From Candidatus Helarchaeota archaeon (lineage in GTDB: Archaea > Asgardarchaeota > Lokiarchaeia > Helarchaeales > RDOG01): a stretch of 64,000 nucleotides of DNA. Location: positions 599,536-663,535 of the forward strand of contig JAHPZH010000001.1 of the NCBI GenBank assembly GCA_019058315.1. The letters are read 5' to 3'. Below the pieces are notes generated by a model. It saw only the letters and a list, made by a program, of their open reading frames with translations, was not told where the DNA came from and ran no database searches. How positions within the stretch are numbered: position 1 is the stretch's first letter; each line of letters opens with the position of its first letter. A program made the position numbers and the translations under genes. Of this stretch, positions 27,969 through 33,759 are shown piece by piece.

Positions 27969-28045
27969 TGGCGGATAGGGGAGGATTCGAACCTCCAACC
28001 GCTCGGTTAACAGCCGAGTGCTATACCTGATTAAGCCACCTACCC
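27969..28045 (-). tRNA. tRNA-Asn(GTT), CCA encoded
   Basis: Cloverleaf; CTCGG-CT-GTT-AA-CCGAG; G73. Confidence 0.95.
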
Positions 28046-28052
28046 ATTTTAA

Positions 28053-28127
28053 TGGGATGGAGATCGGGAATTGAACCCGAGTCTATTGAGCCACAATCAA
28101 TTATTCTACCATTAAACTATCTCCACC
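28053..28127 (-). tRNA. tRNA-His(GTG), G-1 and CCA encoded
   Basis: ATTGA-TT-GTG-GC-TCAAT; G-1:C73. Confidence 0.95.
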
Positions 28128-28133
28128 AAAATT

Positions 28134-28243
28134 TGGTGCGGATGGGGAGATTTGAACTCCCGTTTTTAGATTTCAGCAGTTTTTGGCGTTCTAGTCCAAA
28201 TAATTTGGAAGTCTAAATGTCTAAACCTCTAACGTACATCCGC
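28134..28243 (-). tRNA. tRNA-Gly(TCC) with intron carrying an alternative GCC anticodon
   Basis: TTAGA-CT-TCC-A, 34-nt intron (28172-28205), A-TCTAA; GCC cassette at 28185-28187. Confidence 0.9.
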
Positions 28244-28250
28244 AAAAAAA

Positions 28251-28613
28251 TTAGAGAATTAAGGCAGGCACTGTAATAAATTGCACTGGATTTCTCTTGT
28301 TATACTTTCTATGACATTCCCAACACCATGTAATATTGTTTGTTAATGTTTCAACTTTATAAGCTGAACCGTTACACTTTCCAATAATATGGTGTCGTGT
28401 CAAGTAATTGTTTGGGTCTAGTTTATTTTGTTTTACACCGCATTTCTGACAGGTAAATTTATCTCTATTGTAGATAAATAACCGGAGCTTTAGTTGAAAT
28501 CGCCCGCAGTGTGGACATTGAATGTAACCGATAACTTCTTTATTGAATTGTTTGCATTGTTTGTATTCTTTTTTCAGACCTTTTATTGTTTTTTTACAAT
28601 AAATACACTTAAA
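28251..28613 (-). pseudogene. HNH endonuclease frame with N-terminal Zn-ribbon; start codon missing
   Basis: 120 open codons: FKCIYCK...CPHCG...RDKFTCQKCG...LTRHHII...NNITWCWECHRKYN. GAGGTGA SD upstream, but an in-frame TGA precedes the frame. Confidence 0.8.
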
Positions 28614-28641
28614 TCACACATCACCTCTTTTTGTTTGTTGA

Positions 28642-28713
28642 TCCGACTGTGCGGATTTGAACCACAATATCACAGATCTACAGTCTGCTGCCGTACCAGT
28701 TGGCTACAGTCGG
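28642..28713 (-). tRNA. tRNA-Tyr(GTA)
   Basis: C1-G72, A73, short variable loop (archaeal type); GCAGA-CT-GTA-GA-TCTGT. Confidence 0.95.
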
Positions 28714-28793
28714 TATTTTAATAAAGATGGGTAGGGTCTAATTCAAAAAAAATAAAAGGGATTGATGGTAAGTCTAATTATATTAAGATATTT

Positions 28794-28910
28794 TTAATCA
28801 ACTTCCTTAGACATCGGACTTAATACAACCTCTACGACTTTTTCAACAACTTTCATTTCTTCTGCTTCTTTTTCCGTCAAATATGCATAATAACCCATAT
28901 ATTGTTGCAA
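28794..28910 (-). CDS. Putative 38-aa microprotein
   Basis: GGAGGTGA SD, then TTG: MQQYMGYYAYLTEKEAEEMKVVEKVVEVVLSPMSKEVD*. Confidence 0.45.
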   Translation of the reverse strand: MQQYMGYYAYLTEKEAEEMKVVEKVVEVVLSPMSKEVD

Positions 28911-28970
28911 AATTCTTCACCTCCAATTTTTTTTTAAGATAATTTCTAGCTTCAATTGGGTTTTGTAAAG

Positions 28971-29041
28971 TTGCACAGACAGGAATCGAACCTGCTTGCA
29001 ACTCGTTGTAAGCGAGTCAACGATCCAACCGTCCCTGTGCA
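28971..29041 (-). tRNA. Atypical tRNA-Val(TAC)-like gene
   Basis: 7-bp acceptor TGCACAG/CTGTGCA, canonical T arm, loop CT-TAC-AA; but G8, a 5-nt D loop and a 6-bp anticodon stem. Confidence 0.65.
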
Positions 29042-29046
29042 AATGA

Positions 29047-29121
29047 TGGAATCGGTGGGATTTGAACCCACATAAACTTGATCTTCAGTCAAGCGGACTC
29101 GCCGGATTATCCTACGATTCC
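29047..29121 (-). tRNA. tRNA-Phe(GAA)
   Basis: CTTGA-CT-GAA-GA-TCAAG. Confidence 0.95.
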
Positions 29122-29123
29122 AA

Positions 29124-29209
29124 TGGTGGGGTTACTAGGATTTGAACCTAGATCACCAGATTTCTCCACATTTGGAGTCTGGAAGTCTCCCGGATTAACG
29201 TATAACCCC
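29124..29209 (-). tRNA. tRNA-Trp(CCA) with 10-nt intron at 37/38
   Basis: CCAGA-CT-CCA-A-[ATGTGGAGAA]-A-TCTGG; CTCC/GGAG helix. Confidence 0.92.
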
Positions 29210-29211
29210 AT

Positions 29212-29327
29212 TGGTACTCCCGCTCGGGTTCGAACCGAGGTCAATGGGTTTCTCCCATATTCAGATTATGTTTGATCTGAATCAGACCAAAGCCCATCAT
29301 GCTTGGCCAAAGCTACACCACGGGAGT
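29212..29327 (-). tRNA. tRNA-Gln(TTG) with intron carrying an alternative CTG anticodon
   Basis: A1-U72; 37-nt intron 29250-29286; T-CTG-A cassette at 29261-29265. Confidence 0.92.
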
Positions 29328-29331
29328 ATTA

Positions 29332-29482
29332 TGGCGGTAGGGGAGAGATTTGAACTCTCGCTCCCCGTGGGGAAGTAGATTTCTGGTAAAGTGAAATCTC
29401 AACTCGAGGGTAGGCTACTAAGCCGTTCCATTCTCACTGCTTCAATAGCAGTCTACCGTCGTAACCACTTGACTACCCTACC
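29332..29482 (-). tRNA. tRNA-Ser(GCT) with intron carrying CGA, GGA and TGA anticodons
   Basis: Long variable arm, G73; 65-nt intron 29381-29445. Confidence 0.92.
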
Positions 29483-29490
29483 GCTGATTG

Positions 29491-29607
29491 TGGCGGACTT
29501 GGGGAGATTTGAACTCCCAATCTACGGGTTTCTCCACGATTAAGTTCGGGTTACCCCAAAGCTTGAGATAAAAGCCCGTTGCCGTAACCTGGTTTGGCCA
29601 CAAGTCC
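29491..29607 (-). tRNA. tRNA-Lys(TTT) with intron carrying an alternative CTT anticodon
   Basis: 39-nt intron 29530-29568; CTT at 29542-29544 preceded by CCCG-AA. Confidence 0.92.
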
Positions 29608-29611
29608 GCTT

Positions 29612-29824
29612 TGGCGGGATTGCGGGGAATTGAACCCCGACCTTATGATTTCTGTACTACGGTCGCTTTCCTCCTTTTTCAAAGTCTTATTCTAAACCCT
29701 GCCATGGATAAGTCAACTGAACCCCTATTAAGGAAATTTAATCATTTTTGAGGTGAAATTAATAATTATCAAAAAGGGGCCGTAGTTAGACAGTCATAAA
29801 TCATAGCCATTAGACCACAATCCC
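29612..29824 (-). tRNA. tRNA-Asp(GTC) with 138-nt intron
   Basis: Strict BHB (CTGT/ACAG helix, ACTACGG/CCGTAGT outer stem); intron 29650-29787; G73, CCA. Confidence 0.88.
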
Positions 29825-29882
29825 ATTATTCCTCTTCGACTTCAGCCCTAATCTTAAATTAAAAAATGGGGATAATTTGTTA

Positions 29883-29929
29883 GGGGGCAATAATTAGACA
29901 GTCATTAATAACTATTGAACCACAATCCC
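29883..29929 (-). pseudogene. Degenerate copy of the tRNA-Asp 5' half plus intron start
   Basis: GGGATTGTGGTTCAATAGTTATTAATGACTGTCTAATTATTGCCCCC versus GGGATTGTGGTCTAATGGCTATGATTTATGACTGTCTAACTACGGCCCC. Confidence 0.75.
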
Positions 29930-29963
29930 CGTAAGATGTTGTTGGCTGAGTATACAACTATCT

Positions 29964-30028
29964 GGCTTCAGTACGAGAGGAACAATTTCACATTGTTTGT
30001 TTCTGACAAGAGGAACTTCATCATAGCC
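29964..30028 (-). ncRNA. Box C/D guide sRNA complementary to the 23S sarcin-ricin loop
   Basis: GGCT-ATGATGA-AGTTCCTCTTGT-CAGA-...ATGTGA...-GTTCCTCTCGTA-CTGA-AGCC: terminal stem, perfect C and D boxes, both guides antisense to (U)ACGAGAGGAAC. Confidence 0.85.
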
Positions 30029-30158
30029 TTGGGAATTATAGTTTGGATAACGACTTATATCCAAGCCCCTGCTATTTCGTTCTCTCATTTTCATTACCAA
30101 TTGCTACACCTCTTACTTTAATTGATTGTATACAATAGATTGTTTTCATCTGATAAAC

Positions 30159-30195
30159 TAATGATAGTGGCAGTAGGATTTGAACCTACAATCTT
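30159..30195 (-). pseudogene. 3' fragment of initiator tRNA-Met (direct repeat)
   Basis: 37 bp with 1 mismatch to 31002-31038. Confidence 0.9.
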
Positions 30196-30214
30196 ACAGG
30201 CTATTTGCAAAGAA

Positions 30215-30874
30215 TTAGATATTCTCTATTATGTATTTGGTCATTCCTTTTAAGATATATAACTCCTTTGTACTATCAATTCTCAATTTGCATACCCCAT
30301 TATAACTTCTACCGATTCCTCTAGAGCCATGCTTTTTTATGTAAGGTTTTGTAAACTGATTCTTTGGAATATTAAGTATTATTGACCAATAAGAAATCAT
30401 TTTTTCAATTTCATGATAAGAATGTAGATGAAGATGAATCTTAATAGAATTTTTATCGATTTTAAGAACATCTAAAAGAAATCTAAGAAAAATTTCAATT
30501 AATTTTGGGTCGGAATTACTAAATTCTATTCTATGATCACTAGATGTAGTCCCTTCGCTCTGATATAATGTTGTTCCTATTATCATTAGGTCTGACCAAT
30601 TTTCTTTTGCAATTTTCTGCCCTTCCTTATAATATAGTTTTCTTCGTTGTTTTGCTAGTTCCTTCATTTTGTGATGCCCTTTTTCTAGAATAGATTGAGA
30701 TTTCTTCTTCAGTCTATCTTTTTGTTCATTTGTTAAAATTATATCTCTTGTCCAGTTCGCAACTGTTCCCTTCGGTATTCCCATTTGTGAAGATATTTCT
30801 CCAAAAGAATACCCCTTTTTACGCAACCTCCTAGCTTTTCTCTTAATTTTTTCTTTATAACTTCTATACTTCAA
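30215..30874 (-). CDS. HTH plus LAGLIDADG-like (homing-endonuclease-fold) protein
   Basis: N-terminal HTH (LRKKGYSFGEISSQMGIPKGTVANW); GTTLYQSEG followed by IEFSNSDPKLIEIFLRFL. Confidence 0.7.
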   Translation of the reverse strand: MKYRSYKEKIKRKARRLRKKGYSFGEISSQMGIPKGTVANWTRDIILTNEQKDRLKKKSQSILEKGHHKMKELAKQRRKLYYKEGQKIAKENWSDLMIIGTTLYQSEGTTSSDHRIEFSNSDPKLIEIFLRFLLDVLKIDKNSIKIHLHLHSYHEIEKMISYWSIILNIPKNQFTKPYIKKHGSRGIGRSYNGVCKLRIDSTKELYILKGMTKYIIENI

Positions 30875-31007
30875 TGAACATCACTCTTATATCTCCATAG
30901 CCCAATAATGGCAGTTCAATTGTTTTGTTTCATATTCATATATAAACTCAACAAATTCTCCTGACTATCAAGTGAAATTTTCGTAGAGACGGGAAATTCA
31001 ATAATGA

Positions 31008-31101
31008 TAGTGGCAGTAGGATTCGAACCTACAATCTTTGGGTATCTCAATAGATTATTATTTATGAGCCCAACGAGATCTCCTGATTACTCCATGCCAC
31101 T
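31008..31101 (-). tRNA. Initiator tRNA-Met(CAT) with 19-nt intron
   Basis: A1-U72, three G-C pairs closing the anticodon stem; intron 31044-31062 with CTCA/TGAG helix. Confidence 0.92.
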
Positions 31102-31102
31102 A

Positions 31103-31241
31103 TGGTAGAGAGGAGGGGGATCGAACCCCTGCTCTTCAGTTGTCTAAAATTGTTTTGTTACAAAGACAACCATATAAGATTCGTCTTTGTATGACATTAC
31201 ATCATATCAGACTGACGCCTGAACCACTCGGCTACCTCTCT
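31103..31241 (-). tRNA. tRNA-Ile(GAT) with 63-nt intron
   Basis: TCAGT-CT-GAT-A, intron 31142-31204, A-ACTGA. Confidence 0.9.
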
Positions 31242-31243
31242 AT

Positions 31244-31351
31244 TGGTGCTGACCGGGGGAATCGAACCCCCGTCAACGGATGTCTTCATGTAAATTCGAG
31301 ATTGCGTTTCAATCGAAAGTCCGCTATACTTGTCCGCTATACTAGGCCAGC
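31244..31351 (-). tRNA. tRNA-Glu(TTC) with intron carrying an alternative CTC anticodon
   Basis: 32-nt intron 31282-31313; T-CTC-G at 31297-31301. Confidence 0.92.
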
Positions 31352-31355
31352 ACGG

Positions 31356-31492
31356 TGGAGGGCTAGGAGGGATTTGAACCCTCAACATCTCACTATCTCT
31401 GGCTAACTTACGCTACAGATACATTCCGCATAAGGAAGAGCATGTCTTCTGCATACTAGGCGAGCGCTCTAGACCATTGGAGCTACTAACCC
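31356..31492 (-). tRNA. tRNA-Thr: AGT in place, TGT after removing a 33/34 intron
   Basis: U73, CCA; BHB TCGC/GCGG-AA|TGT-A defines introns 31424-31457 and 31395-31419. Confidence 0.8.
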
Positions 31493-31578
31493 TATTTTTC
31501 CAATGCAAATGGTTCTTAAACCATACTATTTTTTAAAACTTCTTTTCATCAACTCCGTTTTTTTTATTTTAAATATGT

Positions 31579-31656
31579 TGGTGGACTCGCCGAGCTTCGA
31601 TCTCGGAGCCTCCTACTTGCAAAACAGGCGTTCTACCATTTTCGAACTACGAGTCC
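31579..31656 (-). tRNA. tRNA-Ala(TGC), atypical (A3-U70, A54)
   Basis: CCTGT-TT-TGC-AA-GTAGG; acceptor GGACTCG/CGAGTCC; T loop ATCGAAG. Confidence 0.85.
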
Positions 31657-31665
31657 ATTTTTCTA

Positions 31666-31738
31666 TGGGCAAGAGAGGATTCGAACCTCTGTGGGTTGGT
31701 CTGCATCCAACTGCATGACCTAATTCTGCCACTTACCC
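31666..31738 (-). tRNA. Atypical second tRNA-Cys(GCA)
   Basis: GTTGG-AT-GCA-GA-CCAAC; A32, A73, no encoded CCA. Confidence 0.7.
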
Positions 31739-31762
31739 ACTATTAAACAAATGTAATTTTGA

Positions 31763-31839
31763 TGGAGGATAAGACAGGATTTGAACCTGTGTGAAATTGG
31801 GTTGCAGCCAATCGCCTACGCCAACTCAGCCACTTATCC
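31763..31839 (-). tRNA. tRNA-Cys(GCA)
   Basis: ATTGG-CT-GCA-AC-CCAAT; U73, CCA. Confidence 0.95.
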
Positions 31840-31843
31840 TTAA

Positions 31844-32020
31844 TGGTGCAGGAGGAGGGATTTGAACCCTCGGTCTCAAGATTTCTTCTAGTATTAGGAT
31901 TCTGTTCGGATTCCGTTATTCGAATACTGTACTATTCGCATTCTGTTATTAGAATTCCAGATCGATGAGGATAACCTCAAAAAATTGTCTTGTAGTTTAT
32001 CCATACTAGCGTACTCCTGC
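31844..32020 (-). tRNA. tRNA-Arg with five tandem anticodon cassettes (TCT, GCG, TCG, CCG, CCT)
   Basis: A20 in D loop; stem CAAGA/TCTTG; on the + strand the insert reads Arg codons AGG 31896, CGG 31907, CGA 31921, CGC 31937 and AGA 31951, each in a tt-NNN-at context. Confidence 0.88.
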
Positions 32021-32021
32021 A

Positions 32022-32100
32022 TGGTGGGATCGGCAAGATTTGAACTTGCGATTGCTTGATCCCAAATCAAGAGTCCTAAACCATACTAGACCACGATCCC
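32022..32100 (-). tRNA. tRNA-Pro(TGG)
   Basis: CTTGA-TT-TGG-GA-TCAAG; CCA. Confidence 0.95.
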
Positions 32101-32110
32101 CAGTATAAAG

Positions 32111-32248
32111 TGGAAGGAAGGGGTTTCGAACCCCTGAACTCCTACGAGATTAGATTTCTCACAGACCTTGAGTGTCGTTCTTAGTATCGTTCTTGACCGA
32201 TAATAAATATCTTAAGTCTAACGCCTTTGACCACTTGGCTATCCTTCC
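32111..32248 (-). tRNA. tRNA-Leu(TAA) with 55-nt intron containing CAA/TAA repeats
   Basis: Long variable arm, A73; intron 32156-32210. Confidence 0.9.
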
Positions 32249-32688: not shown

Positions 32689-33759
32689 TTGGATTTTTTA
32701 TTATTAATTTTAATATTAATTCAAATTATAATTCTGGGAATTTTGACTATATTTTTAACAAGATTATATATAATAACGAGATACTTGCCAATTATTTCCT
32801 TGATACTTTTTTCTGGTTTATTTTTAATAAATTATACATTTTTTATTCCAATTTCATGGCTTAATGAGTTCGAATTTGAAATGGCAAAATTTATTCTGGA
32901 TTTAACTTCATATTTAACATTCATTTCATTTCCATTTTTAATTTTATTTGTTGAAGGGATAAAAGGACGTCCATTTTCTCCAATATTTATTTCATACTTA
33001 TCATTAAATGCATTTACTATAGGCTATGCAACAGGATCCCGCTGGTATTACATATATCAAGGTTCTTGGATCCAGCTATACACTTTTGATCTCGATCTTC
33101 TGTCAACTATACTTTTGTCTTATTTGTTTCTAATCGTATTTTTAAGATTATTTCAATTTATATTGGATAAAAGTAGTGGTAGACCAAAAAAAATGGCAAT
33201 TATCGTAATTTTTGGACTTTTATTCGCGATAATAGGTGGTTCTTTCTCTTTATCTTCTAATATTATGTATTTTTCATTGGTAAATGTATTAATCGGAACA
33301 TCAATTACCTCCTTTGCATATTTAAAAGAACCCAATAGTTTCTTTTTATCGAATACTAATATAAAAGCTATTATGCTAATCAATAATAAAACAAAAGTAA
33401 CATATCTTACTATGAGTTTAAGTGAAGATGATAAACTAGTTATAGCAGCATCAGGAATAGGGGGTATTATGAGCTTTCTTCAAGAAATATTAGATGTAAA
33501 AAATCCTCCACTTGATCTTATCCATAAAGACTCGGGGTTCTTATTAGAGCATAATTATGAAAATGAAGTATCAGCCATTCTAATTCTTGATAAAATTGAT
33601 TATTTACTTCGATCTCCTCTCAAACATGCACTCTCATTATTTATTAAAAAGTATAAAATGGAATTAGATGGATGGAATGGACATTTAGAACCCTTTAAAA
33701 ACTTTAAAGAAGATCTCCAAAAAATTTTCAAATTTGCTTTACCCGTTTCAAAAGAATAG
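32689..33759 (+). CDS. Polytopic membrane protein with C-terminal longin-like domain
   Basis: About 7 hydrophobic segments, then SGIGGIMSFLQEI...F.KKY..ELDGWNG.L.PF..F. Confidence 0.6.
   Translation: MDFLLLILILIQIIILGILTIFLTRLYIITRYLPIISLILFSGLFLINYTFFIPISWLNEFEFEMAKFILDLTSYLTFISFPFLILFVEGIKGRPFSPIFISYLSLNAFTIGYATGSRWYYIYQGSWIQLYTFDLDLLSTILLSYLFLIVFLRLFQFILDKSSGRPKKMAIIVIFGLLFAIIGGSFSLSSNIMYFSLVNVLIGTSITSFAYLKEPNSFFLSNTNIKAIMLINNKTKVTYLTMSLSEDDKLVIAASGIGGIMSFLQEILDVKNPPLDLIHKDSGFLLEHNYENEVSAILILDKIDYLLRSPLKHALSLFIKKYKMELDGWNGHLEPFKNFKEDLQKIFKFALPVSKE

Follow-up and report, generated by a model that had tools for sequence, protein, structure and literature searches.

A tRNA-Gly gene with two in-frame glycine anticodon cassettes and mutually exclusive hairpins in an Asgard archaeal tRNA array

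Can a single archaeal tRNA gene hold two synonymous anticodons and deliver one or the other, depending on how its precursor is folded and cut? This question is raised by a tRNA-Gly gene in the window (the whole 64,000-nt stretch of DNA that was analysed), for which an earlier note had proposed a TCC/GCC switch that would create C33. The gene is one of about 19 tRNA genes, nine of which are interrupted, that form a co-oriented array at 27969-32248; the genome has 5.8 Mb and 30% GC, and the protein relatives of the window are annotated as Asgard archaea. A mobile or viral origin of the array was considered and ruled out by its flanks, which consist of chromosomal housekeeping genes and giant surface proteins.

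The tRNA-Gly gene and its one-step route to UCC

The gene was matched by Rfam RF00005 with 47.9 bits (gathering cut-off 29; 28243..28137, minus strand), and ARAGORN, with introns allowed, called it tRNA-Gly(tcc) and placed a 34-nt intron behind position 37. Its acceptor stem (G1-C72, C2-G71 and G3-C70, with A73) is of the Gly type and agrees with those of the other two Gly genes in this genome. The parts that matter for the UCC product are the following:

28134..28243, minus strand: tRNA-Gly gene, with G1 at 28243, A73 at 28137 and an encoded CCA at 28136-28134
28211..28243, minus strand: segment placed on the basis of the cmscan alignment and the sequence
28206..28210, minus strand: first cassette, U33-UCC-A37
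28172..28205, minus strand: 34-nt intron of the one-step 37/38 pathway to UCC (H CUUC/GCUG, 2/4; h 5-6 bp; h' 1 bp)
28137..28171, minus strand: 3' exon, from A38 to A73, shared by the two products

Read 5' to 3', the anticodon arm consists of UUAGA, C32, U33 UCC A37, then AA UUA UUUGGA CUAG AA, then C GCC A, AAAACUGCUGAA, A38 and UCUAA. Two NCC anticodons are thus found in the gene, a UCC cassette and a GCC cassette, both in frame, and both spliced forms are 76-nt cloverleaves called tRNA-Gly by ARAGORN. Intronless tRNA-Gly(GCC) and tRNA-Gly(UCC) genes, both strong, lie at C7:140816-140984 of the same genome, in which GGA and GGG make up 57% and GGU and GGC 43% of glycine codons, so that the demand for both isoacceptors is substantial. 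A tRNA-Gly(CCC) gene was not found genome-wide; Gly(CCC) genes with ordinary 37/38 introns occur in two relatives of the same order (G004 and G006). A third, CCC cassette was looked for in the Gly intron and is absent.

With C32 and the following A, the first cassette gives the loop CUUCCAA, which is the loop of the standalone tRNA-Gly(UCC) (C7:140908-140984). The splice motif behind this product is poor. Canonical BHB classes (hBHBh', HBh' and hBH of Marck and Grosjean) have a 4/4 H, two 3-nt bulges and at least one flanking helix of at least 2 bp; the 34-nt intron falls outside them, and with an H of 2/4 it does not reach even the relaxed class, for which 3/4 is required in the published classifier. 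It is the weakest BHB in the genome. Other registers were checked by hand, and product-preserving shifts of +/-1 nt pair no better; no motif of length 34 was listed in the BHB scan of the precursor. Eight of the other genes of the genome with a 37/38 intron show an H of 4/4; it drops to 3/4 in Ser(GCU), in the Pro gene at C6 and in the Phe gene at C10, and to 2/4 in the Ser(GGA) gene at C10. A 2/4 H is also seen at 37/38 in Thr, although this gene is read as having two introns. In Asgard genomes elsewhere, Gly genes interrupted at 37/38 pair all four positions of H, as CUUC/GAAG (UCC) or CUCC/GGAG. The Gly(UCC) and Gly(CCC) genes of related Asgard genomes (L091, L066 and L068) share the 37/38 position and the logic of the anticodon-intron helix with the present gene; however, they have a 4/4 H and no hidden cassette, whereas this gene combines a 2/4 H with a hidden GCC.

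The UCC route may nevertheless be open. Two EndA paralogues, encoded at C12:5422-5676 and C1:331438-331698, were found in the genome, a pattern that is read as (alpha-beta)2 and is that of most Asgard genomes, and (alpha-beta)2 EndA tolerates relaxed motifs (PMC4033280). As canonical BHBs underlie only about 58% of annotated Asgard introns, and the enzyme appears permissive, the weak 37/38 motif is compatible with splicing to UCC. The tRNA-Ser(GGA) gene (C10:98509-98607) has a 16-nt 37/38 intron with H CUGG/AAAG, 2/4, and no alternative BHB; it must be spliced despite this H, and the UCC route of Gly is therefore feasible. On the other hand, given a BHB below the relaxed class, this route may be inefficient, and the GCC form with C33 may be the main or only product.

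The D stem of the gene (28233-28234 and 28218-28221) has a C10-A25 mismatch. A D stem that starts with C10 and has a 10:25 mismatch is shared by the Gly gene (CGUU...GACA) and the tRNA-Trp gene at 29127-29209 (CGUU...GACU). The mismatch is presumably tolerated, because it is present in the only tRNA-Trp gene that ARAGORN finds in the genome, and this bears on whether the Gly gene is a pseudogene, i.e. a redundant decaying copy with neither product functional, kept only through the co-transcribed array. We consider this very unlikely. The mismatch, the AU-rich anticodon stem, the weak canonical BHB, the C33 of the second cassette and the presence of both isoacceptors as strong intronless genes on C7 would fit such decay; against it stand the same C10 in the array's tRNA-Trp, a Leu gene with an identical anticodon stem, and the intact acceptor stem, T arm, CCA and UCC loop.

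Two features of the surroundings were also noted. A possible archaeal TATA box, TTTATTA (28274-28280, minus strand), occurs 31-37 nt upstream of the Gly G1, following a 398-nt gap from tRNA-Tyr. It might serve Gly, His and Asn as one transcription unit; the spacing within this trio is 7-10 nt. Inside the array there is an ORF of 219 aa (30215-30874, minus strand), whose distant homologues (31-35% identity) have HTH_23 or HTH_28 domains, as in transposase-type DNA-binding proteins; no tRNA array was seen on the contigs of these homologues.

An alternative BHB at 32/33 and a bistable anticodon arm

The second anticodon is reached through a different set of elements, all of them within the same anticodon arm:

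28189..28210, minus strand: 22-nt intron of the 32/33 pathway, which takes out the UCC cassette (BHB scan; conformer at -4.6 kcal/mol)
28191..28194, minus strand: CUAG, which forms the alternative BHB's central helix (as its 3' strand) by pairing with 28216-28213
28195..28209, minus strand: backward hairpin UCCAAA-UUA-UUUGGA, which is h' of the alternative BHB
28184..28188, minus strand: second cassette, C33-GCC-A37
28172..28183, minus strand: 12-nt mini-intron left in place by the first splice of the 32/33 pathway (H CCGC/GCUG, 3/4; bulges CAA and AAA)
28182..28200, minus strand: forward hairpin UUUGG(A)C ... GCCAAA, in the MFE fold of the anticodon arm

The earlier note had placed a strict BHB here, with TTAG/CTAG, an outer stem TCCAAA/TTTGGA and an intron at 28189-28210, and all of these elements are present where it put them. 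U27-G30 (28216-28213, UUAG) pairs with CUAG in a 4/4 H with one G-U; the bulges are A31 C32 U33 and AAC (28190-28188), and h' is formed by UCCAAA (28209-28204) and UUUGGA (28200-28195), 6 bp closed by a UUA loop. The 32/33 intron belongs to the canonical class HBh' and not to full hBHBh', because the exon-side helix h has only 1 bp; the 2-3 bp of the Lys, Ser and Thr counterparts count against the two-cassette reading of Gly.

Cuts were placed after the second bulge nucleotide, as in the neighbouring Met and Ile genes only such cuts leave A37. Applied to Gly, this rule takes out 28210..28189 (22 nt) and joins C32 to CGCCA. The product C-C-GCC-A that had been predicted is reached by this cut, with the addition that a second intron of 12 nt (28183..28172) must go too. 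The BHB of this mini-intron, with a 3/4 H and h of at least 5 bp stacked on the anticodon stem, is the MFE fold of the splice intermediate and belongs to the relaxed class (3/4 central pairs). With both introns removed the loop is CCGCCAA, and its C33 follows from the BHB geometry, in line with what had been claimed. A U33-GCC product by a cut at 33/34 was considered and ruled out: the H needed for it, UAGA/UAGA, pairs only 2/4. The better fit of the terminal GCTG to the GCC form was likewise borne out: GCUG (28177-28174) pairs 3/4 with CCGC and 2/4 with CUUC, as it matches G34-C35 and not U34.

The two routes compete for one stretch of RNA. UUUGG pairs either back, with the first CCAAA, or forward, with the second CCAAA, so that the two hairpins are mutually exclusive, and the forward hairpin conceals both the GCC cassette and CUAG. 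For the 53-nt arm, the following energies were obtained from folding that ignores protein binding and tRNA tertiary structure:

Alternative-BHB conformer: -4.6 kcal/mol
Canonical-BHB conformer: -0.9 kcal/mol
Non-BHB MFE fold with the forward hairpin: -7.8 kcal/mol

The greater stability of the alternative over the canonical conformer counts for a gene with two cassettes, and the backward hairpin, as we infer, is transcribed first. The MFE fold of the whole precursor was set aside as uninformative, being dominated by low-complexity pairings.

We tentatively prefer, with a probability of roughly 0.4, the reading of a bistable two-cassette gene in which both cuts are possible, the UCC product being sound and the GCC branch impaired or decaying. 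In fold A, with UUUGG paired forward to the second CCAAA, the normal anticodon stem would be present; the whole 34-nt insert would then be cut at 37/38 through the poor, relaxed BHB to give tRNA-Gly(UCC) with the loop CUUCCAA. In fold B, UUUGGA would pair back to UCCAAA and U27-G30 to CUAG in the canonical-class HBh' BHB; the splicing endonuclease would cut at 32/33 and after CUAGAA and discard the UCC cassette, and the 12-nt mini-intron, by then in a BHB of the hBH type, would be removed to give tRNA-Gly(GCC) with the loop CCGCCAA. Both cuts would be possible for an enzyme that is apparently of the permissive two-paralogue type. The decay of the GCC cassette would most simply be one U-to-C change at position 33, with the job of this branch covered by the standalone tRNA-Gly(GCC).

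Chance level and recurrence of hidden cassettes

To what extent could such an arrangement arise by chance? In shuffled introns, a canonical-class alternative BHB with a cut anywhere at 30-35 was present in approximately 70% of cases, and a strict BHB alone therefore means little. Such a BHB with h' of at least 6 bp was found in 0.1-0.4% of the shuffled introns, and one with h' of at least 4 bp and an in-frame NCC-purine in 0.03-0.04%.

The genome was then scanned for a second canonical-class BHB with a 5' cut at 30-35 that exposes a synonymous anticodon with a purine next to it, at 37. The scan covered 14 genes interrupted at 37/38; nine of them have introns of at least 30 nt, and in seven of these nine a synonymous anticodon lies behind a second BHB (approximately 0.4 expected). 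The null probabilities per gene are 0.1-12%, with a product of about 1e-10 over the seven positives:

tRNA-Gly: hidden GCC, second BHB at 32/33, h' 6
tRNA-Lys: hidden CUU, second BHB at 33/34, h' 9
tRNA-Ser: hidden CGA (U33-CGA), second BHB at 32/33, h' 8
tRNA-Thr: hidden UGU, second BHB at 33/34
tRNA-Ile: hidden UAU, second BHB at 30/31
tRNA-Leu: hidden CAA, UAG and AAG, several second BHBs
tRNA-Pro (C6): hidden AGG, second BHB at 33/34

In addition, the Glu gene has a CUC cassette behind a 3/4 helix; in the same scan no hidden cassettes were found in Trp and Met, which have a single anticodon, or in the short-intron genes. Seven cases against an expectation of about 0.4 make the two-cassette design, which corresponds to no published family, real at the sequence level, and it is, on this evidence, either used or the footprint of a recurrent duplication process. 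A coincidence in AT-rich repetitive sequence appears most improbable to us: many BHB-like matches occur in the 107-nt precursor and the canonical class is frequent by chance, but neither the rarity of h' of at least 4 bp with an in-frame Gly anticodon nor the same event in seven of nine long-intron genes fits with it.

Alternatively, the gene may be a single-intron tRNA-Gly(UCC) gene, in which a partial duplication has left behind the GCC stretch and the backward hairpin, and the cell makes no use of the alternative site. The UCC loop is perfect, down to its identity with that of the standalone gene; the 5' half of the anticodon arm, UAGAC-UUCCAAA, is identical at 9 of 12 positions with UAGAA-CGCCAAA, and because CUAG is palindromic, a duplicated stem strand would pair with its own copy automatically. 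Three TTAG copies in the 5' half give several look-alike BHBs, and canonical-class alternative BHBs have a chance level of about 70%; the C33 of the GCC cassette, otherwise unseen, together with the standalone GCC gene, also speaks for an unused site. Nevertheless, we hold this explanation to be rather unlikely. It requires a canonical BHB that is the weakest in the genome, a 6-bp h' beside a 4/4 H is rare and would be the first to form as the RNA is transcribed, and an archaeal endonuclease would presumably see the motif and not the intent of the gene. Moreover, the hidden cassettes of the six other genes keep C32-U33, which argues for use rather than relics.

Some cassettes of other genes deserve mention in their own right. 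The tRNA-Ile(GAU) gene (31106-31241, minus strand) has a C-U-UAU-A cassette behind a BHB of the hBH type (H CGUC/GACG, h 3 bp, cut at 30/31); if spliced in, it would give an AUA-reading tRNA-Ile(UAU). Cassettes with A34 occur in the first loop of Thr (C-U-AGU-A; 31359-31492, minus strand), in Leu (C-U-AAG-A; 32111-32248, minus strand) and in Pro (C-U-AGG-A; C6:125269-125374), and all three are within the eukaryotic A34-to-I34 set. A34 anticodons, including AGU, have no known use in archaea, and these cassettes may be decayed G34 cassettes. A 156-aa deaminase of the CDA fold (PF14437, 69.8 bits) is encoded at C6:156704-157102; the family also matches archaea without A34 tRNAs.

Position 33, the history of the gene and its relation to known systems

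The C33 of the GCC form sets the Gly gene apart. All nine other cassettes restore C32-U33, with U33 supplied by the Ser and Glu cassettes, which are also at 32/33, and by the Ile and Leu cassettes; Gly alone gives C32-C33. Of the two Gly products, the UCC form (CUUCCAA) has U33 and the GCC form (CCGCCAA) has C33. The earlier note had called U33 near-universal, and rightly so: it is near-invariant in elongator tRNAs (PMC5041475) and is found in every credible tRNA of this genome. The exceptions cited are the C33 of eukaryotic initiator tRNA-Met and the G33 of Candida tRNA-Ser(CAG) (PMC5041475). Like the Gly GCC form, these lack U33 and are otherwise normal tRNAs; however, they are a eukaryotic initiator and a special ambiguous decoder, whereas the Gly GCC form would be an archaeal elongator. 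A precedent for a C33 elongator tRNA-Gly in an archaeon was not found in the literature. Whether the base is C or U is immaterial to either BHB, because it sits in a bulge in the first and opposite a U in the second; therefore only tRNA function would select on it. Given that C33 is unique here and that a standalone tRNA-Gly(GCC) exists, the GCC branch would be impaired or decaying rather than designed. Of the proposed UCC/GCC switch, the in-frame anticodons, the exclusive hairpins, the fit of GCUG and the same build in at least six other genes hold up, while the unique C33 and the standalone GCC gene tell against a designed GCC branch.

A decaying branch has a difficulty of its own, as a useless C33 product should bring selection against an intact strict BHB that diverts the precursor. 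Two glycine isoacceptors could instead be made by alternative, protein-mediated splicing of the bistable precursor, with the C33 form as a working elongator, which we judge quite unlikely. Another explanation is that the gene is an obligate two-intron tRNA-Gly(GCC) gene, from which 22 nt at 32/33 and 12 nt at 37/38 are always removed, UCC is a relic, and C33 either works or becomes U. The 32/33 BHB is the sole one of canonical class, GCUG fits G34-C35 and is one change from the GCAG of other Asgard GCC genes with a 37/38 intron, and GGU and GGC take their 43% share of glycine codons. The mini-intron resembles that of a tRNA-Phe (C10; see below), with the same mismatch opposite nucleotide 33, and in Thr the first loop is AGU, not known in archaea, so that there the second-BHB route looks obligatory. 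Yet obligate removal is unlikely in our opinion: it would put to work a C33 that is exceptional in elongators and unique in this genome, and C33-to-U editing is not known. The occurrence of U-UCC-A right after C32 by chance is also below approximately 1%, as estimated from composition, and the first cassettes of the other dual genes all have valid loops. We retain, tentatively, the bistable gene with an impaired or decaying GCC branch as the preferred reading.

To test conservation and covariation, we searched for orthologues. By blastn against 60 relatives only T-arm matches were obtained; exact-pattern scans of metagenome contigs gave nothing, or bacterial tRNA-Leu look-alikes, and a scan of GTDB genome contigs gave bacteria only. 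With the Gly-type pattern, many Gly genes were found in the five nearest genomes and 161 genomes of the class, none so built. A synteny search with the neighbouring proteins as anchors recovered no orthologous array. A protein 80% identical to that of the ORF at 32689-33759 is encoded in L115 (ENA ERZ23498930, scaffold_28619), probably a same-genus relative; a flavoprotein gene follows as in the window, but a nucleotidyltransferase/HepT pair is inserted. This contig ends 289 nt upstream of the anchor gene and has no tRNA array on it, and the remaining synteny matches are distant or in unrelated contexts. The intron-bearing gene next to tRNA-His in the arrays of three relatives (G003, G006 and G001) was also considered; it is tRNA-Gln, not Gly.

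A tRNA-Phe(GAA) gene (C10:15520-15653), miscalled Ser by ARAGORN, is interrupted twice, by an intron of about 42 nt within its D arm and by a 15-nt mini-intron at 37/38. Over 68 nt, the Gly gene is 77% identical to it in the mini-intron and 3' half, and the Phe mini-intron has the same U opposite nucleotide 33; judged by sequence, the two mini-introns are homologous. Furthermore, the 12-mers UAGACUUCCAAA and UAGAACGCCAAA are identical at nine positions. Together, the GCUG fit, the likeness to tRNA-Phe and that of the 12-mers suggest that an ancestral GCC gene, already with a mini-intron, gained its upstream UCC cassette through partial duplication.

How does such a gene compare with known systems? 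Multi-intron tRNA genes of archaea (Thermoproteales and Asgard; PMC4033280; bioRxiv 10.64898/2026.10.13.758758) resemble it in their BHB introns, more than one per gene and at non-canonical positions like 32/33, and in a two-paralogue EndA. In these genes, however, all introns are removed to give one tRNA, whereas the first Gly intron contains a complete in-frame synonymous anticodon loop, so that two different mature tRNAs would be possible from one gene. Close to the Gly design come the split tRNAs, namely the tri-split and split ones of Caldivirga maquilingensis and the tRNA-Glu of Nanoarchaeum equitans (Fujishima 2009; Randau 2005; reviewed in PMC4033280), in which a body is shared by synonymous isoacceptors and the anticodon piece is swapped; the joining of these pieces at BHB motifs relies on the same endonuclease and ligase. 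These pieces are separate genes joined in trans, whereas in Gly they lie in cis, and alternative folding would decide between them; all pieces of Gly are contiguous, within 110 nt on one strand, which sets it outside the split and tri-split definition. The Caldivirga case reportedly includes tRNA-Gly isoacceptors.

Alternative splicing that changes the anticodon of a tRNA was not found described in the literature for tRNA genes, and the nearest known cases join separate gene pieces in trans (PMC4033280). If the array-wide design is used, Asgard archaea would widen their decoding set without extra genes, and the tRNA complement taken from genome annotation would be incomplete. With its splice signals intact and yet C33 in its second cassette, Gly is an informative outlier of this design, a probe both of selection on hidden cassettes and of the viability of an elongator tRNA without U33. 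Should the GCC branch be dead, the gene would illustrate how a cassette decays once its anticodon is covered by a standalone gene. If both isoacceptors are made and the C33 form works, the gene would be a cis version of the principle of a shared body with a swapped anticodon, and eukaryotes would have a close relative in which the U33 rule is naturally broken.
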